A stretch of DNA of 64,000 bases from a virus. Lineage: Duplodnaviria > Caudoviricetes. Each line of letters opens with the position of its first letter. Position 1 is the first letter of the stretch. Positions 14,261 through 63,342 of the stretch are shown piece by piece. The notes beneath the pieces were generated by a model that was given only the letters and a program-made list of their open reading frames with translations, made no database searches and was not told where the DNA came from. A program made the position numbers and the translations under genes. The DNA is taken from the IMG/VR virus record IMGVR_UViG_2912874417_000004, positions 1 through 64,000 of that record, one strand, 5' to 3'.

Positions 14261-14274
14261 ATTTCTATTCTCCT

Positions 14275-15642: not shown

Positions 15643-16057
15643 ATCTCCTTTTTGTTTTAATTTGATTCTAATAAACTCAAAAAATTAACTGCTGCAACTC
15701 TATACCTTTGGTCTTCTTCATAAGCTGCAACTTGTTTCATATGCTCCAAAAACACATCTTCAAGCCCATGTTTTTGAATAAATCCTAAACACAGACCATT
15801 CCTGAAGAGCATGTCGTCATATTTTGCTTGCAAATCTTTATAATTGTTATTGTTTATCGTCTTTTTCCTCCTTATTGTTTAGATAAAAGTCTTCTTTTAT
15901 AGAGATGTACATTCCATCAACACCCCTGTTTTTAAAACCTTTTCATGAAACAACCGCTTTGTTGGGCATAATTGTCGAGCTTTTTGAGTATTTTAAGTTG
16001 TACCCTGGCTGAGACCCTCCACTGGACAAACATCATGATCTAAGCCAGGGGTTTAAA

Positions 16058-25212: not shown

Positions 25213-25742
25213 GGCTCTATACTCCTTTTTTGTTTATCACCTAAAGACATCATTTGTTCCAATTTGTCGCATACTGCGCTTTCCCAGGAAATTTTTTATA
25301 TTTCCTTTCACTATTTCAATTCCACCACTTCACACCAAGTTCTTAGTGAACTGTCTTTTTTTAAATTTAAAGCAGCTACGCCAGCTACATCTCTATATTG
25401 AAATTCAGCAACTTTTCCATTACTGTCTAGCATTTTTCCCACATACTCTTTTCCAGCCCAAATCTCTACTGCATACTTACTCATACAACATCTCTCCATT
25501 CTCGATAAAAGTAATATTTTATTTTTACTCTTAAAGTAGTTGCAAGTAATTCATTGTCTTTTCTAATTTCATGTCTTTACAATTCTCAATGCATTCTTTC
25601 TTGATTGCTTCTCCACATTCTTTATGTACCGGAAATTCCCTATATTCTTTGTTGTCGGATATTCTTATGTAATAAACGATGTCACCAATGTGATCCTTGC
25701 ATTTAACACACTCCAATGCATCACCTCGCTTCCTATATTTCT

Positions 25743-25794
25743 AATATACTCGCATTCCACCAAACAATCAACAACTATTTTATTTTTATTCTAA
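25743..25794 (-). promoter_or_regulatory. SigA-type early promoter with SPbeta repeated element
   Basis: TTAGAATAAAAATAAAATAGTTG-TTGATT-17 bp-TATATT. Confidence 0.75.
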
Positions 25795-25803
25795 ATATTT
25801 TTT

Positions 25804-25830
25804 AAAAAGTAGGAGAGTTTCCTCCCCTAC
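25804..25830 (-). terminator. Rho-independent terminator
   Basis: GTAGGGGAG-gaaa-CTCTCCTAC-TTTTT on the minus strand. Confidence 0.75.
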
Positions 25831-25848
25831 AGTACAATAAGGCTGCTG

Positions 25849-26013
25849 CTAACGGTTTTGAGTTCGTTTATGAAATACACGAACAATTATTGCTGCTATG
25901 AAGAATAAGGCAAACAATCCAAAAGCCATTGATCCATTCTTTAAAATTATCCCAAAGATCAACAAAGCGCAACCAGACAAAATAAATAGTATTTTACTTA
26001 AGATATTGATCAT
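25849..26013 (-). CDS. 54-aa two-TM protein, candidate immunity protein
   Basis: Not in the track: MINILSKILFILSGCALLIFGIILKNGSMAFGLFALFFIAAIIVRVFHKRTQNR; its ATG overlaps the upstream TGA. Confidence 0.65.
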   Translation of the reverse strand: MINILSKILFILSGCALLIFGIILKNGSMAFGLFALFFIAAIIVRVFHKRTQNR

Positions 26014-26768
26014 TTACACTTCTCCATACAATCAAAGAATGCATTTACACCAATAATACCAGCAGAATTAACACAAGCATAGCAAGCAGTCCCCGCTGTT
26101 GCTGGAACACCAGCTGTGCATGCAGCTCCACATAAAATAGCTAAACCGGTAATTGCCCATTGGCTAATATTCTTATCACCTAAGCAATCTGATACGCATC
26201 CAGTCCAACTCTTCTGAGCACTCATCATGTTAGATGAACTTACTTTGTCCTCTGAAGTTTGTTTTGTTTCAAAGACCCCTGACTTGTCCTCATCCTTAAC
26301 ACCATTAACCCAATAATTCATTTCGTTTTGAGTACTGCTGATTTTCTTCATGTCAACTTCATAGTATTCTTCAATATTCATATCGCTATCAAACGAAACA
26401 TTAAATGAACTGACTCTGTCTACTTTTTCAGTGTCCACGTATAAATAAGAAACCGAATAAGTTACTGTGCCATCATCATACTTGATACCTCTAACTGATG
26501 CATTATCAAATACCTTTTCGTTTGATTTATGATACTTAATGTCTCCATCTTCAATTGCTTTTTCTGCCTTGGATAGAAGTTTTTCCTTAGTCTTTTTACT
26601 CACATCAATAGTGTGATCTGCAATAAATTCTGCCTCTGATTTTACTTTATCCTTGTCGACATTATCTGTTGAGATTGTGCTCTTTGCATCACTGTTCGGA
26701 GGAAATGTTGAAAAGGCCAGGACAAATGCGGCAACTAGTGCTAAGATCGTTCGATAAAAATTGTTCAT
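26010..26768 (-). CDS. Secreted protein with C-terminal 8-Cys hydrophobic domain (halocin C8-like bacteriocin precursor architecture)
   Basis: Sec signal peptide, a charged pro-region, then SWTGCVSDC...LCGAAC...ACYAC...DCMEKC. Confidence 0.6.
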   Translation of the reverse strand: MNNFYRTILALVAAFVLAFSTFPPNSDAKSTISTDNVDKDKVKSEAEFIADHTIDVSKKTKEKLLSKAEKAIEDGDIKYHKSNEKVFDNASVRGIKYDDGTVTYSVSYLYVDTEKVDRVSSFNVSFDSDMNIEEYYEVDMKKISSTQNEMNYWVNGVKDEDKSGVFETKQTSEDKVSSSNMMSAQKSWTGCVSDCLGDKNISQWAITGLAILCGAACTAGVPATAGTACYACVNSAGIIGVNAFFDCMEKCK

Positions 26769-27698
26769 TAAAATATCCCCTTTGTAATATAATTCTCATC
26801 TGGCACCAATACTTATCAAACAAACAATCTCATAAATCACCTTCTTTCTTTAATAAATGCTACCAATCATATAAATAATTGTTAAGAAATACTGATGATT
26901 TTGAATACTAAGTAACACAGATGTCCTTATATCAAAGGGATATTGCTCACCTTTATAAACAACTTATGTAATTTTGTAATTCCTTAGATTTAGTAAATAT
27001 CTCACCGAATTTTTTGTCTATAGTTTTCCATTGTCTTTCAGATGTTGAAGGCAACTCATTTTCAAGGTAAATGAACAACTCATCAACTCTGCTGCTAAGT
27101 TGATCCATATTTTGTGCAAGTGTTTCTTTTATTGGATCAGATATGTACACGAATCCGTCCTCCCTTATGAAAAGATAATTACTGCCTTGCCGTTGTCATT
27201 TTTTATGTATGGAGAATATGTTCGTTCTAGACAATTCCTTGACGTTCCTTCTCCCAGACTCACATTATAAATATCTCTTACTTTATGTACTTCATATGCT
27301 TGCTCTTTTGCCTGTTCAGGTGATAGCGCCTCAATTATCAAAGACGTATTTTCGTCCTTGTGATCTTTACATCTAACATAGTACCTTTTCAATAAACATC
27401 CCTTTATCCTTTCTTTTAATCCTGTTGTATTAATCCTCTTTTAGATAATGCTTGAAGAACTCGTCTAGGTTTGCAGCAATCGCTCCAGCAACTTCTGCAC
27501 AATGAGCATGACTCTTTTCTTGAGCTATTAAAAACTCAACTGCAGACTTAGCAATGGCTTTTATTTGCCCATCGTCTAATTTGCCGCTTCTTACTTCGTC
27601 TTTAATTTTTTCGGCTTCCTCTTTTAAGCTTTCTGGATAGTTCGCCACAGTCTCCACCTCTTGTATTTTATTTTTACTCTTTAAAATTGATCTTTTAA

Positions 27699-30973: not shown

Positions 30974-31681
30974 CTAACTAATAATTGAGATTGTCCCCTT
31001 TTGCTTGCCAAAATTAATTGCGTCACGCTCGGTTGCTACAAGCAAGTCCACTTTATTTCCAACAATTGCTCCTCCAGTATCACTTGCAATTGCTTTGAAC
31101 GTTTTCCCACCAATGCTTACTTCAACTATTGAATTCAAGGGAATAACACTTGGGTCGGTTGCAATAACACGATACCCTTTGTAATAGATTGATTGAGTGA
31201 CATCAACACCTGTTCTAGTTGTTCCTGTGCATCCTTCTTGGCAGTGGGCAATATAAGCACTCAGCTTAACCTGGATGGTTTTCTTTGCGGCCGGTGACTT
31301 GTTTTCTTTTTTGCGTGTGTTTATTTTATTTTTATTCTTAAAAGTTGTATGCTTTGCCGTCTCACCTCCTTTCATGTGCCTTTTCTTACTTTGCTTAGGT
31401 TTAATGAGTTTTGCTGAGATAATCTTCTCTGTATGCCTTTTTAGTTGTTGTTCTTTGTTCGTTTGAGCTTTTTTAAATAGCCGTAAGACAATATTCTCAC
31501 TTGATGGGATCCTAATCTGTCTAGGCTTCTTATAAAATGATTCTTTTATTGAGTCTTCATTTCCCTCTGTTTTATGTAAATGTTGCTCATAACTTATGTA
31601 AGAAAAAGTGGCTAAGGGAATTAAAATCATCATACCATAAACGGACTTGAAAATGTGTTCTTTTATTTTATTTTTATTCAT
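30974..31681 (-). CDS. yorM: Membrane-anchored 3D-domain cell-wall protein
   Basis: N-terminal TM; IATDPSVIPL, ASDTGGAIVGNKVDL. Confidence 0.85.
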   Translation of the reverse strand: MNKNKIKEHIFKSVYGMMILIPLATFSYISYEQHLHKTEGNEDSIKESFYKKPRQIRIPSSENIVLRLFKKAQTNKEQQLKRHTEKIISAKLIKPKQSKKRHMKGGETAKHTTFKNKNKINTRKKENKSPAAKKTIQVKLSAYIAHCQEGCTGTTRTGVDVTQSIYYKGYRVIATDPSVIPLNSIVEVSIGGKTFKAIASDTGGAIVGNKVDLLVATERDAINFGKQKGTISIIS

Positions 31682-38528: not shown

Positions 38529-40043
38529 TTATCCTGCTTTAATATTCAATTTTTCAACTGTAATTAATTCATTATCGAGATTTGTTGTGAAACAATCCTT
38601 GATCCGCATATTTCCCATATTTATATGGGAGAAGACTTTTACTTTGTCGTACTCATTTCCCCTGTTTTTAAACACGTGTGTAACAAAATTTGGCTCTGGG
38701 TAAAATCCTGCTTTTAAGATTGGCTCAATTGCATCCTTCTCTTTTTTACTTAAAGGAAGAATAATCATTGCACCATCAGTCTTATCGGCAATAGCTTTAC
38801 TTCCTCTCAGGTAAGATGCGTCTATTACTTGTCCTTTTTGCCATGCCTCTTTCCAATCACCATTTAACTGAGTAGCACTCATCATATAAACATCGTATTT
38901 GTTACATAAGCCCTTTAACTTATCAGACATAAGCAAAAGGATTTGATCCTCTCTTAGGTTGACCCCGCTTTTTTTACTCATCTCCGAAAAAATTGTCACT
39001 GATGAGTGAATATAATCAAAGTAAATGTACTCAACATTATTTTTAATTACATTCTTTTCAATCGTTCTCTCGATCTCTTGGATATTGAAATCAGGAAGAT
39101 GCTCGAACCAAATATTAGACTGCTGAAGTACTTTAGCAGCTTTGCGCACAAGCTGTTTTTCTTGCTCATTGATCGTATTTCTAAGTATTTTTTTCTCTTC
39201 TACGCCACTAATATAGGCAAGTGCCAAGCTTTGCAATTCCTCTGCCATCATTTCCGTTGAGATGACCGTGGAACTTTTATTCCAAGGGTTTTTCACCCAT
39301 TCCTTCTTTTTAAGGTCGTACAACTCAGTTGCACTTAATCGACAAGCATCAGCAACCATATTCCTTGTTTTACCTCCGCCTGTAATACTTGATCGAATGT
39401 AAAACTTTTTCTTACGAGACCCACGGAAAATTGACGTAAGCATTTCGCTATTTAATGGTACTCCAATATCTGGCGACTCCTCAAAAGAATCTAATAACTC
39501 ATCAATGCCTTCTCCACCTTGAATTCCCACACTTTCAGATGAGGTTCGAAACTTCTCTTTTACATCTACAATCTTCATTTCATAAGCTGCTAGAATTTCG
39601 TCAATCGATTTCTTATCAAACTGTTCCTGCATTTTTTCTTGTTCTTTTGGATCAATTATAGTTTCATCATAAATCTCTTTGATATCGAAACCTAAACCAC
39701 TCATCTCTCTGAGCAAACTAAACTTTTTTAGTCTTTTGTAATGGTAATCAAAGTTTTCGACTACAGCCAGCTCTTGAATTCTTTCGATGTATTCAAGGCC
39801 ATTGTTATCATGAAAAATCTTATATTGGATGTCGTAATCTTTTAGATATCCATCTATCTCAACCTCATTCAATACTTCCGTCCCTTGCTGGAATAAGTTA
39901 CTCATAGCAAAAAACAGTATTGAGTGAAATCTTGAAGGGAAATCATCCGAAGTAATCCTATACTTGTTGCTTTCAGACAAGATTGTGGGATCCTTGAGTA
40001 TGCTTCCTAAAACTTGTATAATTGCTTTTTTGTCTTGTAGCAA
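38529..40043 (-). CDS. yorI: Replicative DnaB-like helicase
   Basis: GGGKT Walker A, STEM, FDYI, ATQLN and GSKAIADK motifs. Confidence 0.92.
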   Translation of the reverse strand: MLQDKKAIIQVLGSILKDPTILSESNKYRITSDDFPSRFHSILFFAMSNLFQQGTEVLNEVEIDGYLKDYDIQYKIFHDNNGLEYIERIQELAVVENFDYHYKRLKKFSLLREMSGLGFDIKEIYDETIIDPKEQEKMQEQFDKKSIDEILAAYEMKIVDVKEKFRTSSESVGIQGGEGIDELLDSFEESPDIGVPLNSEMLTSIFRGSRKKKFYIRSSITGGGKTRNMVADACRLSATELYDLKKKEWVKNPWNKSSTVISTEMMAEELQSLALAYISGVEEKKILRNTINEQEKQLVRKAAKVLQQSNIWFEHLPDFNIQEIERTIEKNVIKNNVEYIYFDYIHSSVTIFSEMSKKSGVNLREDQILLLMSDKLKGLCNKYDVYMMSATQLNGDWKEAWQKGQVIDASYLRGSKAIADKTDGAMIILPLSKKEKDAIEPILKAGFYPEPNFVTHVFKNRGNEYDKVKVFSHINMGNMRIKDCFTTNLDNELITVEKLNIKAG

Positions 40044-40569: not shown

Positions 40570-41541
40570 TTATTTAGATAGAAGATCTTTCAGGTCATCC
40601 AAGATTACAGACATGACGTTTACTTGTTTGCGGCTGCATTCAGTCACTTTAACTCCCTTGCCTAAATGCTTCTCTGTAATCTCATTAACCTCTTCCAATC
40701 GTCCCTCTCCATTGAGCTTAATTCCAACTTCTTTGATTTGCTCCATCAAAGAGTCATAATCAAGCTCCTCTGATGCATTGTTTTGTTTTTGCTCTTCATA
40801 TGTAACAGCAACAATACCTTCTGCTTCTTCCTGTCTTTCAACTGCCTCGATAATGGCCTTCTCCAGGTTCTCTGCAGTGAATTCAGGAAGGTATGTGTCA
40901 ATGTAATCGAATCGGCTCCGTGCAAAGTGCTCATCTGTTTCAGCCAACCAAGCGCTTGATTTGATAACCTTTCTGTCTTCATCAACACCATTGGAACTTA
41001 GATAAAGTACAATATCACTGTTATCAATAACAGGGGCCAATACACGTTTATCACCTTTAGGATAAACTTTTCCTTTTTTGTCCTCAGCAGCATGAGCAAT
41101 AAAGATAACGGTGAATCCTACACCAATCAGTTTATTAATTTCTTCCCATACTTCTGTTTCATACTCTTTCCAAAGACCAAACCCATCATTTCCATCTTTA
41201 ATCCGTTCTACATCATATTGCTCACAAACATATCTGGTTGCATATTTAGCAAATGCATCTACTTCATCAACAATAATTGTCTGATACGTTTCTTTTGCCT
41301 TTTCTGCATTTTTGGTTAACTGTTTATTAACCTTCTTAAAATCCGCCCAGCTATTAATAGCCATAAATTTAACGCCTGCGATGGCATTCAAACCTTTTTC
41401 AAATGGCAAGTATAAAGGCTTCTTCATTCGTGTGCTTTGTTTTGTCTTACCCAAGTTGTTAGAACCATAGATAGTAATAACTTTTCCTTCTAAACCTTTT
41501 GCGACTACTGAAACCTGAGGATTGAAAATATCGATTGCCAT
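40570..41541 (-). CDS. yorG: AAA_24/Sak4-like ATPase
   Basis: YGSNNLGKT, IIVDE and FIAH motifs. Confidence 0.82.
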   Translation of the reverse strand: MAIDIFNPQVSVVAKGLEGKVITIYGSNNLGKTKQSTRMKKPLYLPFEKGLNAIAGVKFMAINSWADFKKVNKQLTKNAEKAKETYQTIIVDEVDAFAKYATRYVCEQYDVERIKDGNDGFGLWKEYETEVWEEINKLIGVGFTVIFIAHAAEDKKGKVYPKGDKRVLAPVIDNSDIVLYLSSNGVDEDRKVIKSSAWLAETDEHFARSRFDYIDTYLPEFTAENLEKAIIEAVERQEEAEGIVAVTYEEQKQNNASEELDYDSLMEQIKEVGIKLNGEGRLEEVNEITEKHLGKGVKVTECSRKQVNVMSVILDDLKDLLSK

Positions 41542-42980: not shown

Positions 42981-43032
42981 ATCTTACATCACCAAAACGG
43001 ATTGGTCAATAACTATTTTATTTTTATTCTAA
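42981..43032 (-). promoter_or_regulatory. SigA-type promoter of the replication operon with SPbeta repeated element
   Basis: TTAGAATAAAAATAAAATAGTTA-TTGACC-17 bp-TAAGAT. Confidence 0.8.
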
Positions 43033-47394: not shown

Positions 47395-47567
47395 TTAATA
47401 ACCACTCCTTTTTATTTTTGTTTTATTCTTAAAACTCAAATCACATAGGTAACTCACATTGTTATCACCCCCTTATAATCAACTTCATCTTTTTCAATTA
47501 CTTTTTCACATTCGCTGCAAAAGCAAGTAAACATTTTCACTCATCCTCTTTCTGTAAAATATCGTTT

Positions 47568-48008
47568 TTATTTAGACTCTATAAGCTCAGGATCTTCATA
47601 AATGTTGCCGATGACTTCTAAATCGACATTTGCTACAAATACAGTCATCATACCTTTATTGATTCGCTTGAATCTAAAACCTGGTACCTCTTTTGTCCAA
47701 TAAACTCCATCTGATGAATAATCAGCTACCTCTTCCTGCCAAAAAACTTCTAATAACTCATTTGAATATCTACGATGATTCCTTACAACGTCCCCCTCGT
47801 AAATCTCACGACCGTTTTTGTCCTTCAATCCGGTGTATTGCCCAACTGTTTCCGGCCTGACACTGTAAGCAAATGGAATACCAGCTTTATTAGAGATATA
47901 AGAACCAGATTCAATACCCATGCTCTTGATTCTTTGCTTAATGATTGATAAATTGCCGTAATACCATTCTCCGTTGATGCCCATTCCTCGAAACTTAATT
48001 TCCCTCAT
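47568..48008 (-). CDS. YopX-family protein
   Basis: MREIKFRG...GQYTGLKDKNGREIYEGD...EVIGNIYEDPEL. Confidence 0.88.
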   Translation of the reverse strand: MREIKFRGMGINGEWYYGNLSIIKQRIKSMGIESGSYISNKAGIPFAYSVRPETVGQYTGLKDKNGREIYEGDVVRNHRRYSNELLEVFWQEEVADYSSDGVYWTKEVPGFRFKRINKGMMTVFVANVDLEVIGNIYEDPELIESK

Positions 48009-48533
48009 TCTCCTTACCTCCCGTCCATTGGTCTAACATTTTCAAAATCCTCTATTTCATCAACATATTCAACGTATTCTATTTCGATATTTCCCGCGGC
48101 ATCTTCATGCACCCATACTTCCATTTCGGCTACCGCTTTCACTTTCGCTTTGTATCTCATTATCATTACCTCCATATTCAATTTACTTTTATCCTTATAA
48201 AATCTCTGTTTTATCTTCATCGAAGTTATCTCCCCTCACTAACCACCATACACTTATTTTATTTTTATCAAATAAATCAATTATGTAAGACTCGTACATG
48301 TCATCCCAATAAGGATCAGTTCTCGCTATGTATTTCTTTACTCTTCCGTTCTCCTCAATCTTGAAGGTTTGCCCCTTTTGAATATCAGTAAACTTTTTCT
48401 TTCTCCAGATTCCTCTAATCAACACATCTACTTCTTTTACCTCAACTTTTTGCCGCTGCATAACATTCCTCCTTTTTGATTTTCGTGTATCAAGCCTGTA
48501 CAATATTCAAAAAACCCTAAAGGATGATGAAAC

Positions 48534-49277: not shown

Positions 49278-50090
49278 TTGTTTGTATCGCCAATGTTATT
49301 ACATTCAATCAAAGAACCATTTGATGATGATAGTTATATTACTGAGCTGAAATTTGATGGAATTAGACTGATCCTCTCCAAGTTTAATGATCAGATAAAG
49401 CTTTATACTCGTCACAATAATGAGGTAACAAGCAAGTTCCCAGAACTGTTGGATCTTGATATACCCAATGGAACTGTTTTAGACGGTGAAATCATTGCAG
49501 CTGCCCCAGGTGGTGCTCCTGATTTTGAAGCTGTAATGGAACGCTTTATGTCTAAGAAATCAGCTCATAAGGTGGTTTATTGTGTATTCGATGTAATCTA
49601 TATTGACGGGTATTCAATCGCTAATAAGCCGCTCACTGAACGTAAGAGTATGCTTTCAGACCTAAACCTTGACCACGATAATGTCTTTGTGATCGAAGGC
49701 CTGCAAGGAAACGGATTAGCTTATTTTAATCTGGCCAAAGAAAAGAATCTTGAAGGAATCGTACTAAAGAAAGCTAACTCCCCTTATGAAATCAATAAAC
49801 GTTCCCATAGCTGGCTGAAAGTGATTAATTATGATTACACAGATGTGCTTATCACTGGCTACACCAAAGAGGATATAAAGTTTCTTCTGTCTTATCCTGA
49901 TGGCACTGCAGCTGGATTTATGGAATTCATGCCGAATGCGGAACGAAGCGAGTTCCACTCTATAAAACAAGTAAAGTCTGAATCTGATGAATATGTATTT
50001 GTAGAACCGATCTTATGTAAGGTTAAGCACAGATTTAAGACTAAGCATGGTAAACTCCGCATACCTTCCTTTGAATCCTGGAGAGTCTAA
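49278..50090 (+). CDS. ligB: ATP-dependent DNA ligase
   Basis: ELKFDGIR, LDGE, VFDV, EGIVLK and WLKV motifs. Confidence 0.92.
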   Translation: MFVSPMLLHSIKEPFDDDSYITELKFDGIRLILSKFNDQIKLYTRHNNEVTSKFPELLDLDIPNGTVLDGEIIAAAPGGAPDFEAVMERFMSKKSAHKVVYCVFDVIYIDGYSIANKPLTERKSMLSDLNLDHDNVFVIEGLQGNGLAYFNLAKEKNLEGIVLKKANSPYEINKRSHSWLKVINYDYTDVLITGYTKEDIKFLLSYPDGTAAGFMEFMPNAERSEFHSIKQVKSESDEYVFVEPILCKVKHRFKTKHGKLRIPSFESWRV

Positions 50091-50465
50091 TCTCTCCGTT
50101 ACATAATTCCTTAGTGACTCGCCATTACACACCAAATGAAAATTTAGTACATGGATCAATTAGATAATTTATCGTTAAAATAACTATTTTATTTTTATTC
50201 ATAAATAATCACCAAATGTCATAGCCTACAAAATCATTCAAAAAAATTCGTCATTCCCTCATCCTCTTCTACTGTCAATCCATATTCATCAAGCCTGCTT
50301 AAATAATCTTCTCGTTCTTGTTTGATCATTTTTTCACCTCTTTTTTATTTTTTTCAATTCTTTTTTGATTTTCATATTGCTTTTCACTCTTTTATTAATA
50401 GATGCGTGTCATACACATGCCATCTAAGAGAGATAGGACATTTTTGTCTCGGGAGGTGAAATGCA

Positions 50466-50618
50466 ATGAAAATTCTTATGGATCTCTTCACAACTTGGAT
50501 TTTTGATAAAGTCATGGATTATTCACTAGGTGCTATAATTTGGTTTGTATTCAAGTCCAAGTCAAAGCAGAATGAGTATCCCGAAGACTTTGAGGAAAAG
50601 CGTCGATTCAGACTTTAA
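50466..50618 (+). CDS. 50-aa single-TM protein (YoqT position)
   Basis: Not in the track: MKILMDLFTTWIFDKVMDYSLGAIIWFVFKSKSKQNEYPEDFEEKRRFRL; RBS GGAGGTG. Confidence 0.6.
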   Translation: MKILMDLFTTWIFDKVMDYSLGAIIWFVFKSKSKQNEYPEDFEEKRRFRL

Positions 50619-51118
50619 ATTAACTGACTCGTATTCTGATCGCTATCGCCGAGTGTAATGACTTCCGTAAATGCCACCTGCTCGACCGGCTTGATAACGG
50701 CTTGCGCGATGCGATCGCCTTTTCGGATGATGTACGAACCTTTCGCAAAATGATCCCAAGCTCCGAGGTAATCGAGAGCACTGACGATTTTATCTCTGAT
50801 ATCGAAAAGAAAGTCCTTTTCAATATCTGTATAACGATTTATATTGTCGACGATTACTCCGACCTCTCCTCGATAGCCCGAATCAACTGTTCCGAGTTGC
50901 ACACGCAGTCTAGTATTCAGCGTAATGCCTGATCGCGGACGGATTTGCATTTCGTATCCCTCCGGAATCTCGAACGCCAAACCCGTCGGCACAAGCTCTG
51001 CCCAGCCCGGTTCGATAATAACGTCCTCTGACGCCACTAAATCGAAGCCGGCGTCCGTTGCGTGCGCATAAGCCGGAATCTGTGCGTCCGGTGATAACCG
51101 TTTAATATTTACGTTCAT
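50615..51118 (-). pseudogene. dut: Trimeric dUTPase lacking C-terminal motif V
   Basis: AGFDL, RPRSG, GTVDSGYRGE and GDRIAQ are present. The protein ends GDSDQNTSQLI instead of RGxxGFGSSG. Confidence 0.8.
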
Positions 51119-51478
51119 TTCGTTTCCTCCTAATAACTGATTAAAAATTATCTTTTATCTAGACTTGTTCAGCTCTCTCTATCATCTCTACAAGCTCTTG
51201 TGCCTTGTTTAATTTTCTGCTGTAGTCTTCAACTTCTTTCTTCGCGATTGCCATTTTATCAAATAAAACGCGCCAGTTTCCATTAGGATTTCTGCTGAAT
51301 GATTTAACAATTAGGCCATTAAACCAGACGTCTAAAATTAGTCTGCTCTCACTTGTTTCAGGTTTATGACCAAAGGCAGCATCTTTATTATTACCGGCAT
51401 AAACAATTTGTTTATTTATTTCATATAGATAATTTTCAGTTTCTTTTGTAACTACATATGTATTCATTTTCCCACCCC

Positions 51479-52003
51479 TTATAGATTGTATTGACTGTCT
51501 TTAATTGAATTCCAATCAAACGTTTCAAGTATGTTAAGCAACTGCTCTACTTTTGGTGCCCTCCAAGCTGTCATTGCATAAGTATGAGCTTCTGAAGTGT
51601 AGTGATGCTTGTTCAAATTGATGTGGCTTTTCGCTTCTTCTTTGGTCAAAAACATTGTATCCGGCCGTACAATATGAACCTTTCTTTCTGGAATTAATTC
51701 TGCTTCTTCATCAATGTATTTTTGAATCCACTCAATAGGATCATCAAAGTCGTCATTTTTCAACTCTGTTAATGCTTCCTTAGATAGCTCACTATCTTCT
51801 TTTAAATCTTCTAAATAATCATCTAAAACATATGCTTCTGCAATATATGGCAGGTATACAGAATACCGTTCTGCATTTTCCTCTCGAGCTTCGACCCATT
51901 CATAATCACCAACTGTCCAGAAACGTGGTGCAGCTTGTCCGTCGTTGTCTTGATTTTTCAACTCTTGCTGAAGTTCTTTTAAAAACTGAATATCTTGATT
52001 CAT
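51479..52003 (-). CDS. Hypothetical acidic phage protein
   Basis: 174-aa ORF with RBS AGGAGG right after the dyad at 52024. Confidence 0.7.
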   Translation of the reverse strand: MNQDIQFLKELQQELKNQDNDGQAAPRFWTVGDYEWVEAREENAERYSVYLPYIAEAYVLDDYLEDLKEDSELSKEALTELKNDDFDDPIEWIQKYIDEEAELIPERKVHIVRPDTMFLTKEEAKSHINLNKHHYTSEAHTYAMTAWRAPKVEQLLNILETFDWNSIKDSQYNL

Positions 52004-52329
52004 TCGTTTCCTCCTATTCTGTTTAAAATCACGATTTTATGTAGACTAAACCTTTTTCTTGCTGTCATGCGTTCACACTTTTGGGTAAAATACTAATCTG
52101 TTAACATTAATAACTCATCAACTTTATAATTGTATTCACCGTATTCACCCGATCTCCATTTAACACCTACAGTGCCTTGATTTGTCACCCACAATATAAT
52201 TCCCATTTCCCCATTTTCATGCCATCTTACTTGCTGCCCTTTCTGATAACCAAGCATGTTTCCACCCCTTTCTTAAAAAGCATTTTAATTTAACTTTAAT
52301 GTGTATTGCCTTGAGAAAATCCCCTTTAA

Positions 52330-52746
52330 TTGGTAAACTCATACCTAACTTACATACGAGTGGGTGATTCCTTGAATAAAACAATCGGTATTACTGGATT
52401 AATCATCAGCATAGTAGTGCAATCATTTTCGGTAGATGATTCGCTAACCCAAAAGATTGCTACGGGTTTGTTATTTGTATCAATAATTATCTATAATTTT
52501 GAACATGCTAAAGATTATTCTATAAAGTCACTTGTAATTTTAGGTGTTTCCTTTATTGTTTTTATGTTAGGGATTTATAAAATCCTCTCTATTACCAGCG
52601 ATTACTTTGAAAAGCTTAATGTGAATTATGGATACATCCTCTTATTTGAAATAGCATTGATTATTGCATTAGTGTCGATTGCAGTAAACGTAATGAAGTA
52701 CATTGCGAATCGGTTAAAGAAATCACCTGATGGTAAAGAGCTTTGA
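52330..52746 (+). CDS. yoqO: YoqO-like membrane protein
   Basis: Four TM segments, opposite strand, SPbeta position. Confidence 0.6.
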   Translation: MVNSYLTYIRVGDSLNKTIGITGLIISIVVQSFSVDDSLTQKIATGLLFVSIIIYNFEHAKDYSIKSLVILGVSFIVFMLGIYKILSITSDYFEKLNVNYGYILLFEIALIIALVSIAVNVMKYIANRLKKSPDGKEL

Positions 52747-52759
52747 CTCTTTGCCGTTT

Positions 52760-52990
52760 TTAAGCTAAATACTTCTTCTTATGTGGTCTTCTATGTACAA
52801 AATCAAACGCAATATCGACTTGTGCCGGTTCCTTCTCCTCTGCTACTCGCTCTGTAACAACAATCAGTTGTCCATTTTCCTGGCGGTCAATGCTATGGAC
52901 TGAATATCCTTTAGCAGCGTAATATTCACCAATAATCTCATCAACGTGGTTGCTAAGCAGATTCCTCTTTATCATCTTTATAACCTCCAT
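52760..52990 (-). CDS. Small phage protein (YoqN position)
   Basis: Convergent with yoqO. Confidence 0.55.
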   Translation of the reverse strand: MEVIKMIKRNLLSNHVDEIIGEYYAAKGYSVHSIDRQENGQLIVVTERVAEEKEPAQVDIAFDFVHRRPHKKKYLA

Positions 52991-53177
52991 TTATTTTATT
53001 TTTATCCTTTAAATATTTATATGTATTCCATCCGCAGCCATCAAATATGCTTATATCCGCTCCAAGATGCCATCTAAACCAAACTAAGTTAAACCAAGCT
53101 GTATCAATTATGTGCTTTAAATAACCTATATGCCTTCCTCCTTACAATGAAATAATCCTTTTATTTTGTTTTTTTTA

Positions 53178-53795
53178 TTAAAATAGCTTACTGTATCTAT
53201 TCGTTTTCTCAAGTCCGCAAATCTCACAGACGCATTCCTGCTCATAGCTGTTGTTTCCAACCTGTTCCTCGTCATTCTTATACCATTCATGCTTACATTG
53301 TTTTTGCAGTTCACTTTTTTGTTTAACTAATGGTTCGATTTTTTCCTTTTTAAATTCTCTAATTTCTTTTTCAAACTGCTCGATTTTCTCGTTAACTTTA
53401 TCTAATTCTTCAATTAACATTTCTTCGTCTTTAAACGGATTTTCAGATAGCAGTTCCCAGTCTTGCTCTAACTCTCCTAACGTTTCATTGTCATACCCAT
53501 TAAATACATTGTCATATAGTTTGAGCTTATAATACATTTCCCCAAGCATATGAGTATAACTAATAAGCTCAGCAAAGCTTCCAGTTCTTTTATTTTTAAA
53601 ATATAGCTCTAATGGTAAGACGGGTACAACAGGACGTTTGTCTGTGTAAATAATCTCTACCTCATCTTGCGTTTGTTTTTCTAATACATGTCTACCGTCT
53701 CCGGCAACCCCTCTATACGTATACTTTTCCTGATTTAAATAGCATTTTTCACCTGGATTTAATTTGTTGTCTAACAATACTTCATGAAGTTTCAT
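53178..53795 (-). CDS. Hypothetical protein with coiled coil and C-terminal Zn ribbon
   Basis: CKHEW...CVCEICG. Confidence 0.65.
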   Translation of the reverse strand: MKLHEVLLDNKLNPGEKCYLNQEKYTYRGVAGDGRHVLEKQTQDEVEIIYTDKRPVVPVLPLELYFKNKRTGSFAELISYTHMLGEMYYKLKLYDNVFNGYDNETLGELEQDWELLSENPFKDEEMLIEELDKVNEKIEQFEKEIREFKKEKIEPLVKQKSELQKQCKHEWYKNDEEQVGNNSYEQECVCEICGLEKTNRYSKLF

Positions 53796-53813
53796 TTGAT
53801 AATGTCTCCTTTT

Positions 53814-54065
53814 TTAATTGAAATAAGTAATATCTAGTTCAAAATTAAAATTGGGATGAAGTCTCCATAGTTGATGTCCTAAGGAAGTTTTCTTGGCGTA
53901 ATTTAAGCAGTTTCTTGTGCCACTTTTACTCCCGTCATAAACAGCTACTATTGCTTCACTGTGATCAATCATGTATTCATTTCGTTTCTGCATCTTTGAT
54001 GGTGAAAACTCACCTGGTACAGCTTCACTAACTTTATATTTCTCCAATTCTATATTCAGGATCAC
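53814..54065 (-). pseudogene. C-terminal fragment of a SLOG/YspA (DUF1273, YoqJ-like) protein
   Basis: MQKRNEYMIDHSEAIVAVYDGSKSGTRNCLNYA; the N-terminal half is missing. Confidence 0.7.
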
Positions 54066-54811
54066 TGAGTTTTTTGAAATTGACTATCGGTTCTCACCCT
54101 TTCTTTAAAACAGTCTTTTTATCATTCTTTATCACTTAAATATTCTAAATACCTAAGATGTTCAAAGAGTTCTTCATCTCTATATGCTTGAATTGCATCT
54201 TCAAGTTTAAACGAGTGTTTTATTTTTCTGCTCGTGGCTTCTGTAAATAACCTAGTGATTTTACCTTCATCTAGATAACTATGATAGCCACCACCATTAC
54301 AAAGAAATCGAAGTATATTCTTTAAATACCGATCAGATATCTGATCAACTGTGTAGGTATTATAATTTTTATCTATCCAGTCGTATTCATTTCTCATATT
54401 TTTGGTTATCCCAGTCCTCCTTTTGATTAAAACTTCAATTTTACCTATCTCCTAAAATGGTTTTACACCACTCGTTTATATCTGTTGAAATCTGATCAAT
54501 TTCAAACAACTTATCCTTTAGCATTTCTTCACCGTCTGCTCCATTAAAGCTTGCCAATCGTTCAAGTTGCTTTGAATAGTGCTTAATCTTTTCAATGCTT
54601 AATTCTAAATCCAAGGAACCGTTTTTAAGTTCAACCTCACCCATGTACTCCATTGTTGAACGAGTCCCGCATATTCCACAAAACGCTCTCTGTCTCTTAT
54701 AAAATTTATCAATAATAGTGGTATGGCCGCAGCCAGTTCTGCAAATGTGCTTGTAATGTGTCAAAAAATCTCTTCCTTTCTATTCCAATGAAATTTTACT
54801 TTTAATCTAAT

Positions 54812-57010
54812 TCATCTTGTTTCCTGGGCCACAGTTTCTTTTTCAAAATCGTTTCTCAATTTGATAATGGAGGTTGATTTTAAATACCCTCTGTCCTTTG
54901 TCTTAGCCCATGCGAAAAATCTATTGTGTAAAGGAGTATAAAGGCTTCCTGTGTTAACCATATGCTCATGTTTGTTGCTGATCTTATGCTTTAATCCCCT
55001 CATTTGTTTCCAAAAGTTATAGTAAGGGAGCTTAAGTTTTGTCATGAAGCCGGCAGCATCTTCAATTACATAACCCTCTTCCTCAATTGAAAAATCTTGT
55101 GACACGTCCAGATACCATCTATAGAAATCTGTCCATTTACTAAACTCTGCAACTTGTTTTTTACACTCAATGTTTAGATGCTCGGCTACAGCTTTCAATT
55201 CCCAATAAGGAAGTTTTGTATACGCAACCTGCCTTTTAACAATATCTAAAAGCACCAGTTTATCTTTGTCGTATTCAATGATATGCGGGTCTTTTTCTGG
55301 AAATATTACTTCAAAAACGAATGAAACATTGTTAAGCTTCAGGTAAGTTTTGATAAAAGACACTTGATTTTCATTAAAAGATTTAAAAAACAGTTCTTCG
55401 ACCCATTTCGCATGTTCATTTGATATTTGTGACGTAAAGGATTTAGAAGTGAATACCAACTGATCTGACAAAGAGTCATACCCTACAGTTCCTAAATATC
55501 CATTTGCCTTATCGAAGACTGTTACTGGAAATTTCATCGTATCTACGAGATGATGCATTCTTGTTTCAGATCGTTCTCCAATGTTGAAAAATTTATCATA
55601 GCTTCTGCTTACAATTTCATTGCTCTCAGTGTTAATAAACAAACCTCTTGCCTTAATATTTGTTTCATCCCACTTTTTCTTTCTAAATGCTTGCTTTGTA
55701 AAATTAAATGATGAGATATTGTTTGGCATTTTATTCTCTTGCACATATTCATGACCACGTAAGTGGGAAATCAATTCATCAATTGTTCCAACAGTTGCGC
55801 TGTTACTCGGTACTTCACTTGAAATTTGTTTAAAGACTTTATTCTTCACTTCATGCGTTTCAATTCCGTTCTCAGACAGTGTAACGACTCTAAGATGCCC
55901 TCCTCTTTCCACTTGCCCTTCCAGGTTATATGATCTATCTGCTGCTACCACAGGTAGACGGTACATGTTTCTATGTCCATGAATCTGTACAACATTTTGA
56001 CCTGCAGTATTATTTGCAAATTCATAATCAATATCGTCTGAATAATCTCCAACTCCATTGATGAATTGTGTTGTTGCAGTCATCAAAAGATTTTCTGGTA
56101 CGGTTGAAACTCCGCCATGGGTTACAATGTATGTAGTGTTTTTATATGTAAAGTAAGCTAACTGATGAAACTTCCTGGCCAACTGTCTAATGTCTTTTTT
56201 ATCAATGTTGGATTGTTCGATTTCTGGCTTAGTTTTGTTGTTAAATGTGTTGCTAGGTGTTTCTTCATCATTCCCATACATATTGATATATCTATCATGA
56301 TTTCCTTCGAGAATAATCACATTTTTATAATCTTTAATTTTGATCATGAATTCTAACAGCTGTGCATTTTCAATACCTCTGTCGATAAGATCTCCTACAA
56401 AAATGTATAGTTCATTTTCATTCAAATCACCGTTTAAGTACTCTTGAAGCACAGTATTACACCCATGAACATCTCCGAAAATATGGATCTTTTTATAATC
56501 GTCAAAACATCTCGGCTTATAAGTCATCGTGGTTTCAAACTCATCTGGTTTTAGAACAGTTACCCAAGATGGCACTTTTTCTGTTGTCATTCTTTCATAA
56601 ATATTTAGAATACTGCTTTCAGGAACATGTTTATGTTCAGCCCTCATTTTATTTCTTTTTAAGATTCTCCGAACATCCACATCAGAAAAATCAACTACAT
56701 ATACACGGTATCTATATTTTTGAGCTAGTGGCTTATATCTTGAAATCATGCTTTGCTTTGAATGAGTTGCATCGATAATTGTGAATTCACCGCGATCCAT
56801 CCTATCTTCAAGCAACTTTAGTAATAAATCCCACACCTTGTTGTCGTGTTTTGGAGAGATTTCATATTTTCCACTTTTGTTTAATACAGGTGACTGAAAC
56901 AGCAGTCTAATGTTGTCTGCAGAAAGAGTGTACTGCTCAAGTCCATTTTCCTTAATCCAAGTTGATTTCCCCACTCCTGGACAGCCTCTTAATAACACTA
57001 ATGTTCTCAA
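54812..57010 (-). CDS. Trifunctional RNA-repair enzyme: polynucleotide kinase + metallophosphoesterase + Rnl1-type RNA ligase
   Basis: Kinase: GCPGVGKST and IIDAT. Phosphoesterase: GDVHG, GDLIDRG, GNHD, HGG, HGH. Ligase: KFFN, DKANG, FEV, EGYVI, KLK. Confidence 0.88.
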   Translation of the reverse strand: MRTLVLLRGCPGVGKSTWIKENGLEQYTLSADNIRLLFQSPVLNKSGKYEISPKHDNKVWDLLLKLLEDRMDRGEFTIIDATHSKQSMISRYKPLAQKYRYRVYVVDFSDVDVRRILKRNKMRAEHKHVPESSILNIYERMTTEKVPSWVTVLKPDEFETTMTYKPRCFDDYKKIHIFGDVHGCNTVLQEYLNGDLNENELYIFVGDLIDRGIENAQLLEFMIKIKDYKNVIILEGNHDRYINMYGNDEETPSNTFNNKTKPEIEQSNIDKKDIRQLARKFHQLAYFTYKNTTYIVTHGGVSTVPENLLMTATTQFINGVGDYSDDIDYEFANNTAGQNVVQIHGHRNMYRLPVVAADRSYNLEGQVERGGHLRVVTLSENGIETHEVKNKVFKQISSEVPSNSATVGTIDELISHLRGHEYVQENKMPNNISSFNFTKQAFRKKKWDETNIKARGLFINTESNEIVSRSYDKFFNIGERSETRMHHLVDTMKFPVTVFDKANGYLGTVGYDSLSDQLVFTSKSFTSQISNEHAKWVEELFFKSFNENQVSFIKTYLKLNNVSFVFEVIFPEKDPHIIEYDKDKLVLLDIVKRQVAYTKLPYWELKAVAEHLNIECKKQVAEFSKWTDFYRWYLDVSQDFSIEEEGYVIEDAAGFMTKLKLPYYNFWKQMRGLKHKISNKHEHMVNTGSLYTPLHNRFFAWAKTKDRGYLKSTSIIKLRNDFEKETVAQETR

Positions 57011-57058
57011 ATTCTATCAACCTTTCTGATTTTTATTTGTTTAAAATGCATCTTTTAA

Positions 57059-57487
57059 TCACTTCATTGCGGCATAGTTCTCAAAGAATTCTTCAACTGA
57101 TCTCAGGTATCGGTATTTATCTGCATCTTCCGGATCTCTAAATCTTTTCGATAGTACCAATGACCAATTAAACATCAATGGAGAAAACCTCGCCCATTTA
57201 CTAAAGCTTAACTGAAGACCTTTCCATTCTCTCCCCGCTAATTCCGCTAACTCTAGAATTTGATCTTCTTTTAAATTTACTTCTTCTTCAAACATTACTT
57301 GAATTTCCTCGTATGGTTTATGTCCAAAACAACAGTGGCGTGTTTTCAATCCAATCTTGAAATTCAAAATATCAATTAAATTGATCATTTGTGTATCAAG
57401 CTCATCATAGGGTATACCATTTGCAATGAATTTTTCTCTTTGATTTGATTTCACATTATCCTCCAGCAGATTTAAATTCTCACTCAC
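57059..57487 (-). CDS. Conserved SPbeta-type hypothetical protein
   Basis: [11 protein letters not shown] motif; co-oriented. Confidence 0.65.
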
Positions 57488-57642
57488 TTCACCCCCTCCT
57501 TAAAAAATGTCTTCTCACACTCTTCACATAAAGGCGGGTGAATAGGAAGCCCCTTACAGCCGCACATATAGCCATCACAACACATAGTCATATCTACATC
57601 CGTCATCTTTCCGCATTTGATACAAGGAACTATCTCACTCAT
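57484..57642 (-). CDS. 52-aa 8-Cys zinc-finger micro-protein
   Basis: Not in the track: [52 protein letters not shown]; overlaps both neighbours. Confidence 0.65.
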
Positions 57643-57838
57643 TCCGCACCCGCCTCAGTCCAAAACAATGTCTCATTCGTTATTTTTTCCACTTTATAAT
57701 TTTTGAGGCAGTTATTATTTACGTATTCCTCTGCGTATTTCAATGCGGTTTTATCATCATTGGCGCCGAAACTGAAATGCTTCCAACCGAACTTAACTTC
57801 GTACCAAAGCTTATATTCAATACGTTTTACATCAGCAT

Positions 57839-58261
57839 TCATTCCACGCCCTCCAACAACTCAGGATTATGGTAAACGTCGCCGATGACTTCGTATTTTT
57901 TTACGCTAGGATCTGATTCACTTTTTAACCAGCTTATAGCATTCATATCTAAATCAATCCAAGGTCTTAAATCAAATGCTGGGTAATCTTCTTTTTCTAA
58001 ATATTCCACTACCCCGACATAGAATGGCTCTTTGGAAAAAGCAGAGTCGTATGTAATTTTTATATAATCTCCGGCATATATGTCTTTGCCATTGCTGTCT
58101 TTAAGACAAGTCCATAGACCCCGACTTATCAACTCGTAATCTTCTTTATCTGTGTAGATCGTCTCCCCGAAATATTCAATTTCACTCAAGGTGTAACAAT
58201 GCAAGACAATTTCATTAGTCTTCTTATGCCGGAAAACGTATCTGATTTTGATTTCATTCAT
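57839..58261 (-). CDS. YopX-family protein
   Basis: LWTCLKDSNGKDIYAGD...EVIGDVYHNPELLE. Confidence 0.82.
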   Translation of the reverse strand: MNEIKIRYVFRHKKTNEIVLHCYTLSEIEYFGETIYTDKEDYELISRGLWTCLKDSNGKDIYAGDYIKITYDSAFSKEPFYVGVVEYLEKEDYPAFDLRPWIDLDMNAISWLKSESDPSVKKYEVIGDVYHNPELLEGVE

Positions 58262-58554
58262 TACTTTTCCTCCTTATTTAAATTCGAATAAAACTTACAT
58301 TTTATTTTTATCCTTAATATATTCATGCTGATTCACAACATCACGAAGTATGTATTGTATTTCCTCTAAATTGTCTTTAACAAAGTCCAGGTCTCCTATT
58401 GCCATTCTGATTTCATTATTCTCTATGCTGCGCAAAGATCTTTCGCATGATGCTAAGAGCTTTTCATATTTCCTTAAAACCATAGTTCTTATTTGATCGT
58501 TAATTGGTTCATTAATCAATAATTAAAGCTATCTCCTTTCCTTATTCTAATCCG

Positions 58555-58606
58555 ATTATATAACCTCAACCAAATGTTGTAAACAATTATTTTATTTTTA
58601 CTCTAA
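58555..58606 (-). promoter_or_regulatory. SigA-type early promoter with SPbeta repeated element
   Basis: TTAGAGTAAAAATAAAATAATTG-TTTACA-17 bp-TATAAT. Confidence 0.8.
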
Positions 58607-60857: not shown

Positions 60858-62207
60858 TTAAACAACAGCAATTTCATCATAAAACATTCGCTTAAGTTTC
60901 TTCTTCATAATATTCTTTAGTTGATTCTCATTATTTTGTCTTCCTAATTCTTCAAACACTCTTCCGCTTTTACTAAAGTCAATCGTATTAAGGATATTTT
61001 CAAGCTTGTTTAGTTCTACATTGTTTTCCTTCATCTTCTTGGCCAAATAAACATAACCGTAAAACATTACGTTATGATTAATGTATGATTGCTTTCTAAT
61101 GGACGATAAATCATCTTCAAGAAATTCGTCTGGGAAGGCATAAAAAAGGTTATCAAAAAAGTCTACCAAGTATTTCGCAATTTTCAACGCATCTTTTCGA
61201 GATTTCAGCTCAAATGCATCGTCTACAGCTTCTGATAAAGTATAATATGTTACAAGGAAATTGCTATCGATACCAATTTCACTTTGTGGGCTTATTTTAT
61301 TTTTAAGTTCACTTTTAAATTTCAGCTGCTCGACAACGGTTGAAGAATACCGTTTTTGTCCCAATTCTTCAATTCTGGATTTTTCAACTGGGTTTATGGT
61401 ATTCATTTGAGCAAAGTGAACCTTAGCCTTTTCTTCATCGTAATTGAGCACATTTAAAATGAATGGTTGATCTAATTCAGGGACTTCAGCAATGGCCTTA
61501 ACAATACCTGAAATTCGATGATATCCATCAAGAGCATCTAATAAGGTTCCTCGTGTTACAGTGAGGGTTTGGTCGCTTGGATCATATTCAACTTCTTCAT
61601 CACCATCAGATGTTCCAAGACGAGCGTTAAAAGTTAACATTGATACAATTAAATCGCCTTTAATAAACAATTCTTTGATCTCGTCAACTGATTTAGGGTT
61701 TGTTTTAGGTACAGGGATAAGGCTGCCCTTAATGTATTTTCCTTCACGCTGAGTATTGTAATTGTACTGCAGGATGGAGCTATTATATAACTCACTAAGT
61801 TCCTTGGCAGTAATGGAAGTGACATAGTTATCCTCTTTAATTTTAATCACATTTTTGAACTTGTATGGTAGCTTAACTACTTCTTCACCGGCGAATACTC
61901 TCCCACCTTCAAGCTCTTTTGCCAATCTGGTTGGAAAATAATTTGAGGGATCTAAAGCTGGAGCCCCAAGAATTGAATACATCTCTTTTGAAACAATGTA
62001 CACTTCTTTTTCGTTTAAACGCTGTACGTTGTTATCATTATTATTTAAAATTTCTTGGATATAACCAGGGAGTGCCTTGTATTTGTCCGCCATTGTGGCT
62101 TTTAATTCCTTCACCATATTGGAATCACTTTTAATATCAATAAGATTTTTCTCTATTTCAGTTTTTAACTTATAAAGTTTATCCGTTGTTAACAAAACTT
62201 CAGACAC
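60858..62207 (-). CDS. yopQ: YopQ/SroE, ParB/DndB-like (DGQHR-type) protein
   Basis: TQR, LDGYHR and FAQMN motifs; position in the operon. Confidence 0.8.
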
Positions 62208-62283
62208 ATTATCACCTCACATAATCATATTAAATTTATCATTATTTTCATAAGCAAGTAAAGCTTTTATATGACTATTTGTA

Positions 62284-63342
62284 TCATTTGTTCAAAAACA
62301 TTTTAAGTTTATTCTGTATATACATGTCTGATTTTAAAAAGAATTCTTTATATTGCTCTAAGGCAACATCGTCTAAAAAGGACATGTCTTCTTTTTGATC
62401 AACCAAAACCCCTGGATCTTGAGAATAATCCCTTTCATTGACTAAATAATGATCATTTAAAGTATTGATATTGCTGTGGCCAGAGAACGCTGCCACTTTT
62501 TTAATATCACCATTAACGCTGTAAGAAAAGTTTGTTGCAGTATTGCGTAAACTATGCGGAGTTATCTTTCTTTCTTTGGGAATACCCATAACTCTACATA
62601 CGCGATTCCACATATCCTGTATTGAATCAACTGTTAACTTATGAAATAACAGTTCATGCTCCCCATACTCTTGCTTTAACAGCAACAACTCTTCATAAAA
62701 AGCAGTGGAAATCCCAACTGGCCTAGCCTTTTTTTGCTTAGTTTTTTTAAAGTTGACGAGATAGCATTGGTGCTTTTCTGAATAAGTAATATCATCCCAC
62801 CCAACTCTAAGCACCTCTGATTTACGCCCACCAGTACGTGCACTAAACAAAATAAACATCTTTTTCATTAATCTGTTCTGACGCTCAGTAACATAAGCTG
62901 CCTCAGCAAACTCATCAGCTTCCGATATTCCTTCAAAAGACCCTGCTGGGTTCTTTTCTGTCGGAAGAGGTCTAAAATTAAATACAGATGAATCACACTC
63001 ATGTTCAGATTCAAGATACTTAATCATGCTTTTCAGTGCGGCAATCTTATTGTTAATTGTTGAATTGGAGTTGCTTTTATTTTTAGCCAAATGGGTTCGA
63101 TAATCATACAGGTCGCTCTTCTTGATCGCCAGGTCACTCTCAGTTAAATATTCAATATCCTTGGCAGCATAGTGGTTGAAAAACTCTCTTATATGCCTTT
63201 CATACGTGGCTCTAGTATTAGACTTTTCAATTTCTCCAGTTTCTCGATCCCTGTTTCTTAAATCTAATTCATCAAACCACCTATTTATGTTATTGTATAT
63301 TGAATAATCCCTTAGTGTTGACGCTTTCTTTTGAGCTTCCAT
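62284..63342 (-). CDS. yopP: YopP/SroD tyrosine recombinase
   Basis: TGGRKSE, KTKQK, PHSLR, SGHS and DHY give the full R-K-H-R-H-Y set. Confidence 0.88.
   Translation of the reverse strand: MEAQKKASTLRDYSIYNNINRWFDELDLRNRDRETGEIEKSNTRATYERHIREFFNHYAAKDIEYLTESDLAIKKSDLYDYRTHLAKNKSNSNSTINNKIAALKSMIKYLESEHECDSSVFNFRPLPTEKNPAGSFEGISEADEFAEAAYVTERQNRLMKKMFILFSARTGGRKSEVLRVGWDDITYSEKHQCYLVNFKKTKQKKARPVGISTAFYEELLLLKQEYGEHELLFHKLTVDSIQDMWNRVCRVMGIPKERKITPHSLRNTATNFSYSVNGDIKKVAAFSGHSNINTLNDHYLVNERDYSQDPGVLVDQKEDMSFLDDVALEQYKEFFLKSDMYIQNKLKMFLNK

Follow-up and report, generated by a model that had tools for sequence, protein, structure and literature searches.

Palindromic joints with individual centres as probable points of module exchange in an SPbeta-like Bacillus provirus

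Introduction

What are the nine short palindromes that separate the genes between positions 50176 and 58304 of the viral record IMGVR_UViG_2912874417_000004? The record is an SPbeta-like Bacillus provirus of 130,193 bp, and the window analyzed here is its first 64 kb. SPbeta-like phages are a leading model for the study of arbitrium signalling and anti-defence genes. Mosaicism of their accessory regions is established, but neither a mechanism nor a cis element for it was found described in the literature we searched. The palindromes themselves were likewise not found described in the SPbeta-phage literature searched, which did not cover Brady et al. 2023. An earlier note on this DNA had read the locus as a tandem array of gene cassettes transcribed from one upstream promoter. 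Our comparison of phage genome sequences indicates that the palindromes, hereafter called joints, very probably serve as points at which relatives exchange modules in register. We describe the sites and their behavior among natural relatives and in laboratory recombinants, and then weigh the ways in which exchange could come about.

Results

Sites of one layout between genes

Two forms of the site were searched, a strict pattern TAAAA-N6-TTTTA and a degenerate pattern TRAAA-N6-TTTYA. The window holds 18 strict matches against 0.70 expected (about 25-fold) and 25 degenerate matches against 2.77 expected from shuffles (about 9-fold). Across the whole 130-kb genome the strict motif has 26 copies at the spacing of 6, and any other spacing from 0 to 14 gives 0 to 5 copies. 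All nine sites that had been reported between 50176 and 58304 were recovered with the degenerate pattern; seven are strict, and the sites at 53148 and 54789 have one TGAAA arm.

Sixteen of the 18 strict sites in the window lie between a stop codon, which they may overlap, and the next ribosome-binding site (RBS) of the minus strand. Read on that strand, they begin at or directly after the stop codon and finish 5–25 nt ahead of the RBS. A logo built from 61 distinct sites, in which the invariance of the 5-bp arms is imposed by the search pattern, shows weak outer positions T-C-T at −6 to −4 and the complementary A-R-A at +19 to +21, around centres that vary. The layout can be described as a strong core TAAAA-N6-TTTTA with a weaker outer part of about TCTnnA...TnnAGA, giving a roughly 11-6-11 palindromic consensus that is 16 bp long in its strong positions and about 28 bp with the weak ones included. 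Inverted arms enclosing an asymmetric crossover region of 6–8 bp characterize the core sites of tyrosine recombinases, and the logo has this form.

Two strict copies, at 31533-31548 and 38701-38716, lie inside long open reading frames (ORFs) of the replication region. In-gene copies in relatives show no reassortment of their flanks (1 × 1 families) and occur about as often as chance predicts; judged from these sequences, copies inside conserved genes look like chance occurrences.

The same joints in the same order among relatives

When positions 50000-58500 were compared with 24 SPbeta-group phages, matches were found only in pieces, and the best of them (SPbetaL2) covers 53% of the region at 92% identity, which marks it as highly mosaic. 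We compared the homologous region in 16 annotated phages (SPBc2, phi3T, SPR, Goe11-14, BUCT082/083, SPbetaL1-L6, and L8) and widened the set by 27 IMG/VR relatives to 44 phages including that of the window. The flank families and four-gamete quartets of the nine joints were counted in this set:

50176..50191: joint with centre TAACTA (plus strand); 9 phages, 7 left by 3 right flank families; terminal, adjoining a convergent ligase gene, with no gene after it
51142..51157: joint with centre ATTATC, a one-base variant of the ACTATC of relatives
52024..52039: joint with centre TCACGA; 15 phages, 5 by 4 families in 9 combinations
53148..53163: joint with centre TAATCC, TGAAA arm variant; 19 phages, 7 by 4 families in 12 combinations
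54106..54121: joint with centre CAGTCT; identical 16-mer in 39 phages, 12 by 7 families in 30 combinations, 33 four-gamete quartets
54428..54443: joint with centre CTTCAA; ORF 54441-54764 stops at the TAA of this joint
54789..54804: joint with centre TTTTAC, TGAAA arm variant in common with phi3T; 29 phages, 9 by 12 families in 23 combinations, 16 quartets
57042..57057: joint with centre TGCATC; 43 phages, 11 by 16 families in 34 combinations, 12 quartets
58289..58304: joint with centre CTTACA, inside which falls the stop codon of ORF 58295-58519; 40 phages, 3 by 13 families in 19 combinations, 7 quartets

Across 17 phages the order of the sites and their position-specific 6-bp centres are identical, and the distance between identical centres ranges from 278 to 3613 bp, with both extremes between TTTTAC and TGCATC (278 bp in SPR, 3613 bp in L2). 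Because the order of centres is fixed like a series of addresses, units are replaced in place and not reordered. The earlier expectation that units vary among relatives as whole site-to-site blocks is thus borne out for their content and contradicted for their order.

The 16-mer of a joint stays identical while both of its flanks switch between unrelated families, and homology ends within 1–3 nt of the edge of the site. The four joints tabulated for quartets show up to 34 flank combinations and between 7 and 33 four-gamete quartets each. Among phage pairs homologous on one flank only, the same 16-mer was kept in 267 of 403 flank-anchored comparisons, and 328 of the 403 had at most one mismatch. 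The similar run at 21761, 22129, and 22524, to which the earlier note had likened this locus, is present and behaves like the main array, with the same site order and flank behavior across 21761-27697.

One further slot coincides with a locus already named in the literature. The published “dedicated anti-Gabija locus”, which carries Gad1 or Gad2, is the slot between joints TATCGT and TCTCTG (47555 and 48198), and these two joints bracket Gad2 of SPbetaL6 exactly. The slot spans 47555-48213 in the window, where its content is two small ORFs, 6968-8235 in L012, and 6399-8219 in L015. A different arrangement was seen in SPbetaL2 (L002), where one slot (12948-16576) carries three tandem modules that are alternatives to each other elsewhere. 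At the inner junction after gene 59 a left arm TAAAAG stands alone and runs directly into DNA that as a rule lies behind a different joint; from its sequence this junction looks like a degenerate hybrid joint.

Laboratory chimeras joined within sites

Recombinants of SPbeta and phi3Ts from evolved strains were described by Dragos et al. (10.1101/2020.05.06.055103), with 16 homologous junctions and one “non-homologous” junction. Fifteen of the 17 lie within 400 bp to 19.8 kb of homology and two lie in patches of 18–27 bp. For junction 7 (“30 bp”, contig C19), phi3T 61800-63100 and SPBc2 68800-70200 are identical only over 27 bp, in a patch that encloses a TAAAA-N6-TTTTA site whose centre is the same in both. 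For the “non-homologous” junction N1 (contig C25), the patch of 18 bp is again such a site, its centre shared by the two phages, and it is the orthologue of the window site at 25506. The deposited contigs uniq_19 and uniq_25 contain the SPbeta flank, the site, and the phi3Ts flank; each half of a chimera is found in one parent only, and the complete chimera in neither. The chimeras therefore show exchange at the sites in real time, on no more than 18–27 bp of shared sequence, and both of them join sites of identical centre.

Reshuffling away from the palindromes

Of 191 BLAST endpoints, 60 fell no more than 20 nt from a site, a zone that makes up 4.7% of the sequence, and many others fell at gene boundaries lacking a site. 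Neighbouring genes stayed adjacent in 0.13 of relatives where a site lay at their junction and in 0.36 where none did; tested by junction type, the values were 0.076 and 0.197 (Mann–Whitney p = 0.004). Breakpoints thus favour the sites without being confined to them. Gene-family maps revealed reshuffling inside blocks as well, strongest in the slot 57042-58289. Two outcomes had been named in advance as speaking against a cassette array: conserved content was not what we found, as content varies, and variation that ignores site boundaries does occur inside blocks, as in this slot. The same slot contains a second kind of junction:

57839..57854, minus strand: second, non-palindromic junction linker of about GGAGGGCGYGGARTGA, comprising an RBS and overlapping stop and start codons

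More copies of this linker are located at 57639-57654 and 57484-57499 on the minus strand. In many relatives it closes unrelated genes of the slot 57042-58289, forming reassortment points without a palindrome.

Discussion

A tyrosine recombinase or short homology

The mechanism that we favour, while stopping a little short of calling it probable, is exchange by a tyrosine recombinase on heterospecific sites. The arms, common to all joints, would be bound by the enzyme as inverted repeats, and strands would be swapped across the asymmetric 6-bp centre, which would act as a position-specific address. With two SPbeta-like phages in one cell, DNA would be exchanged between joints of the same centre, and two such exchanges would replace a module in register, leaving neighbours, stop codons, and RBSs intact. 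Only identical centres would recombine, as in heterospecific lox/FRT cassette exchange. YopP/SroD is the best candidate for the enzyme, and a second protein of the window bears on the principal alternative:

62284..63342, minus strand: YopP/SroD, tyrosine recombinase with Phage_integrase and SAM-like N domains and all catalytic residues; candidate enzyme for the joints
40570..41541, minus strand: YorG-like Sak4-type single-stranded DNA annealing protein, candidate for the short-homology mechanism set out below

The motifs of YopP are GGRKSE, a KKTKQKK hairpin, HSLR, and GH...DHY, which provide the residues R, K, HxxR, H, and Y. The catalytic residues are also kept in two distant homologues (32% and 36% identity), whereas in a third the second R is replaced by K. 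YopP is expressed from the lysogeny operon. Because SPbeta integration uses the serine recombinase SprA, YopP is an orphan without a known substrate. SroD was reportedly described by Brady and colleagues in 2023 as an auxiliary repressor, a role that could reflect binding to the joints. YopR belongs to the inactive MrpR type, and YopQ resembles DndB. A second gene of the Phage_integrase family lies outside the window at genome positions 108769-109287 (plus strand) in a 352-aa open frame, with a Pfam match stronger than that of YopP, and its product is an alternative candidate enzyme.

More specific, and held more tentatively, is the proposal that YopP/SroD acts on about 30 addressed sites in a natural form of recombinase-mediated cassette exchange, by which co-resident phages would frequently swap, in register, accessory and anti-defence modules such as those of the Gad1/Gad2 slot. 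All relatives of YopP in IMG/VR are 76–99% identical, leaving no variation in which covariation of recombinase and arms could appear, and a search of IMG/VR did not recover the distant homologues P0007 and P0009.

Several observations weigh against a dedicated recombinase. Strong conservation is limited to 5 bp per arm, which is short for a recombinase arm, and binding or cleavage of the joints by YopP is at present a prediction from its sequence. No centre was seen twice in a genome, but this is not significant, since 48% of column-shuffled nulls contain a duplicate. Across vertically inherited junctions the centre has 1.07% mismatches versus 2.54% in the flanks, a modest difference, and neither of these two results separates one mechanism from the other. 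The rule of identical centres, natural and in the laboratory, is predicted equally by homologous recombination. No palindrome arrays were seen at metagenome loci that encode distant YopP homologues (at most about 31% identity), which may count against this enzyme. The phage genome encodes a RecJ-like exonuclease as well as the Sak4-like annealing protein, and reassortment at the non-palindromic 16-nt linker implies that short-homology exchange works in this phage family without a palindrome.

The last two points lead to an alternative that we consider a serious possibility, if a somewhat unlikely one, namely recombination at short homology. The palindromes would then be kept for another reason, as targets of a dimeric regulator or as roadblocks, and crossovers would fall on them as the sole islands of 16–27 bp identity between modules that are otherwise unrelated. 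Template switching could promote them, or the annealing protein of Sak4 type together with the exonuclease of RecJ type, in a manner akin to lambdoid linkers or T4-like PeSL (promoter-early stem-loop) cassettes. Both of these proteins are encoded. Besides the linker, junctions without a site are also heavily reshuffled (linkage 0.2–0.36), and exchange in register follows from the requirement for identity alone. A 5-6-5 layout would equally suit a helix-turn-helix dimer of the kind seen in the 434 repressor, which we count in favor of this explanation. Against it stands the fact that both short laboratory junctions are at palindromes and none at other short identity. To place 2 of 17 junctions in patches of 18–27 bp, despite tens of kb of near-identical DNA, implies very high activity per base, and site junctions are broken about 2.5 times as often as other junctions. 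That no RecT or ERF was found in the genome we count for the recombinase. Nor is a regulator for the sites known: chromatin affinity purification sequencing (ChAP-seq) of MrpR found the SPBRE only (PMC10516654).

Regulation, free cassettes, and chance

A purely regulatory role is improbable in our view. The sites would be operators or roadblocks, bound by SroD/YopP, SroE/YopQ, or a small helix-turn-helix protein, that silence or time early accessory operons, and they would coincide with mosaic boundaries merely because viable recombinants break between genes. Such a role agrees with where they lie, in early operons that follow a promoter of a repressor-controlled kind and there between a stop codon and an RBS; the homologous yopV promoter of SPbeta is a target of MrpR (PMC10516654). 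It would also suit the auxiliary repressor activity reported for SroD. What it leaves unexplained is an identical 6-bp centre in up to 43 phages with unrelated flanks, the end of homology within 1–3 nt of the site, and laboratory chimeras joined inside the site; moreover, the site at 50176 precedes no gene.

Far less likely still is an integron-like system of mobile promoterless cassettes that are excised and inserted at any site. Single promoterless ORFs bracketed by sites, a tyrosine recombinase gene 4 kb upstream, and the occasional gene found beside another centre (yoqG after CTTCAA in SPBc2 and after CAGTCT in phi3T) would suit it. The fixed order of centres in all phages compared, however, largely refutes it. 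The two sites flanking a unit differ in their centres, which integration of a circle with one site cannot yield, and the sites, at 16–28 bp and with no stable single-strand fold predicted, are not attC-like.

That the pattern is a chance or compositional artefact of AT-rich intergenic DNA can practically be dismissed. The two to four copies inside genes per window do agree with the number expected of the degenerate pattern by chance, but the enrichment of both forms, its specificity for the 6-bp spacing, and conservation in 40 or more phages refute it for the intergenic set.

Comparison with known elements

Three other roles were examined for the sites and rejected, those of promoter, terminator, and RNA hairpin. 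No promoter-like or terminator-like match was found at the sites. An RNA hairpin was rejected too, as folds of the transcribed strand range from 0 to −3.5 kcal/mol with z near 0 (RNA parameters, not DNA). The sites were also distinguished from the SPBRE, the operator of MrpR/SroF, which is a 15-bp box at ChAP-seq peaks in the promoters of yorE, yopV, yopM, yonX, and others (PMC10516654). This box is a different, non-palindromic sequence with a core of about AATATGTATA, found 25–50 nt ahead of the start codon at about 10 promoters, and it does not overlap the palindromes; conversely, no TAAAA-N6-TTTTA site was found in the upstream regions of yopV and yopM. SroF binds a box of 24–26 bp as a monomer. 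The two elements resemble each other in that the SPBRE is also a multi-copy intergenic element of SPbeta bound by a protein of the tyrosine recombinase fold.

Among known exchange systems, a close formal counterpart to the recombinase reading is heterospecific lox/FRT cassette exchange as engineered with Cre or Flp, in which inverted arms are common, a short asymmetric centre decides pairing, and two different flanking sites allow replacement in register without deletion within one genome. The phage sites differ in being natural, in having about 25–35 centres per genome and arms of 5 strong and about 6 weak bp instead of 13, and in that their enzyme is only a candidate. The pdif sites of Acinetobacter plasmids, based on XerC/XerD dif, likewise have an 11-6-11 layout and flank small modules that differ between related replicons. 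Each pdif site, however, has two different arms (for XerC and XerD), alternates in orientation, and uses the host Xer proteins, whereas the phage joints have symmetric arms, the same arm pair throughout, position-specific centres in fixed order, and a phage-encoded candidate enzyme.

As in integron attC arrays, palindromes of recombination type separate the single genes of the locus, which are apparently promoterless and may be read from the one promoter-like site upstream, and a tyrosine recombinase gene is nearby. The attC sites are 57–141 bp long, carry R and L boxes (GTTRRRY core), and are interchangeable and recombined as folded single strands; the joints, in contrast, are 16–28 bp with TAAAA arms and no predicted fold, and they are addressed, with modules replaced in place. 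T4-type PeSL cassettes and lambdoid linkers are similar as short conserved boundary sequences in hyperplastic early regions whose modules are shuffled between relatives. A PeSL, though, contains a promoter and a terminator hairpin and is used by homologous recombination, while the joints have neither of these features, and their palindromes combine arms shared by all with a centre particular to each.

Modules and promoter of the array

The genes and the promoter-like site of the array are as follows:

50615..51118, minus strand: dUTPase module
52330-52746, plus strand: YoqO-like gene with its own promoter-like site, interrupting the array
54122..54397, minus strand: single-gene module, 91 aa, no family; the slot holds yoqI and yoqH in SPBc2
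54441..54764, minus strand: single-gene module, 107 aa, as in phi3T; the slot holds yoqG-yoqF-yoqE in SPBc2
54812..57010, minus strand: single-gene module, a 732-aa fusion of P-loop kinase, calcineurin-like phosphoesterase, and T4-type RNA ligase domains
57059..58261, minus strand: four-gene module with overlapping stop and start codons, the last gene being YopX; internally reshuffled in relatives
58583..58555, minus strand: promoter-like site TTTACA-17-TATAAT, the best match upstream of the array (11/12)

The intervals 54106-54443, 54428-54804, and 54789-57057, which had been proposed to contain one ORF each, do so in the form of the three single-gene modules; other blocks have 2–4 genes (1–4 over all blocks). 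The 732-aa fusion is an enzyme of RNA-repair type and may counter host tRNA or RNA nucleases. Its slot is occupied in relatives by the yoqD antirepressor, a two-gene pair, or, in SPR, one small gene with 278 bp between the sites.

The promoter placed upstream by the earlier note, with none evident inside the intervals, corresponds to this promoter-like match: from 58555 down to 50176 we found no minus-strand promoter match of at least 11/12 and no terminator-like site. One upstream promoter-like site without a strong internal one fits a single transcript, as far as such matches can indicate. The reading as a tandem cassette array survives in part, in that the units are bounded by sites, replaceable, and located below one promoter-like site, but they are not free cassettes of the integron kind.

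Directly upstream of the promoter-like site, at 58589-58603, lies the 15-mer GAGTAAAAATAAAAT. The strand-specific 15-mer GA[AG]TAAAAATAAAAT has 18 copies in the window versus 0.36 expected, all on the minus strand (for example at 58589-58603, 43015-43029, 25777-25791, and 12895-12909). Several copies are positioned about 5 nt upstream of a -35/-10 pair, and three overlap palindromic joints (50186, 58299, and 25516). SPBc2 has merely 3 copies in 45 kb, and from its distribution the 15-mer may be an early-promoter operator of this phi3T-type phage.

Significance for SPbeta-like phages

The joints explain precisely why “dedicated loci” exist, the anti-Gabija slot being one example, and they lead us to re-interpret the published “non-homologous” laboratory junction N1. 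If short homology suffices for exchange, the sites mark the small amount of identity on which a phage can still exchange a module. If a recombinase is responsible, the joints would represent heterospecific-site cassette exchange in a natural form and would provide the conserved orphan YopP with a substrate, and about 30 orthogonal sites would be available as a genetic tool.

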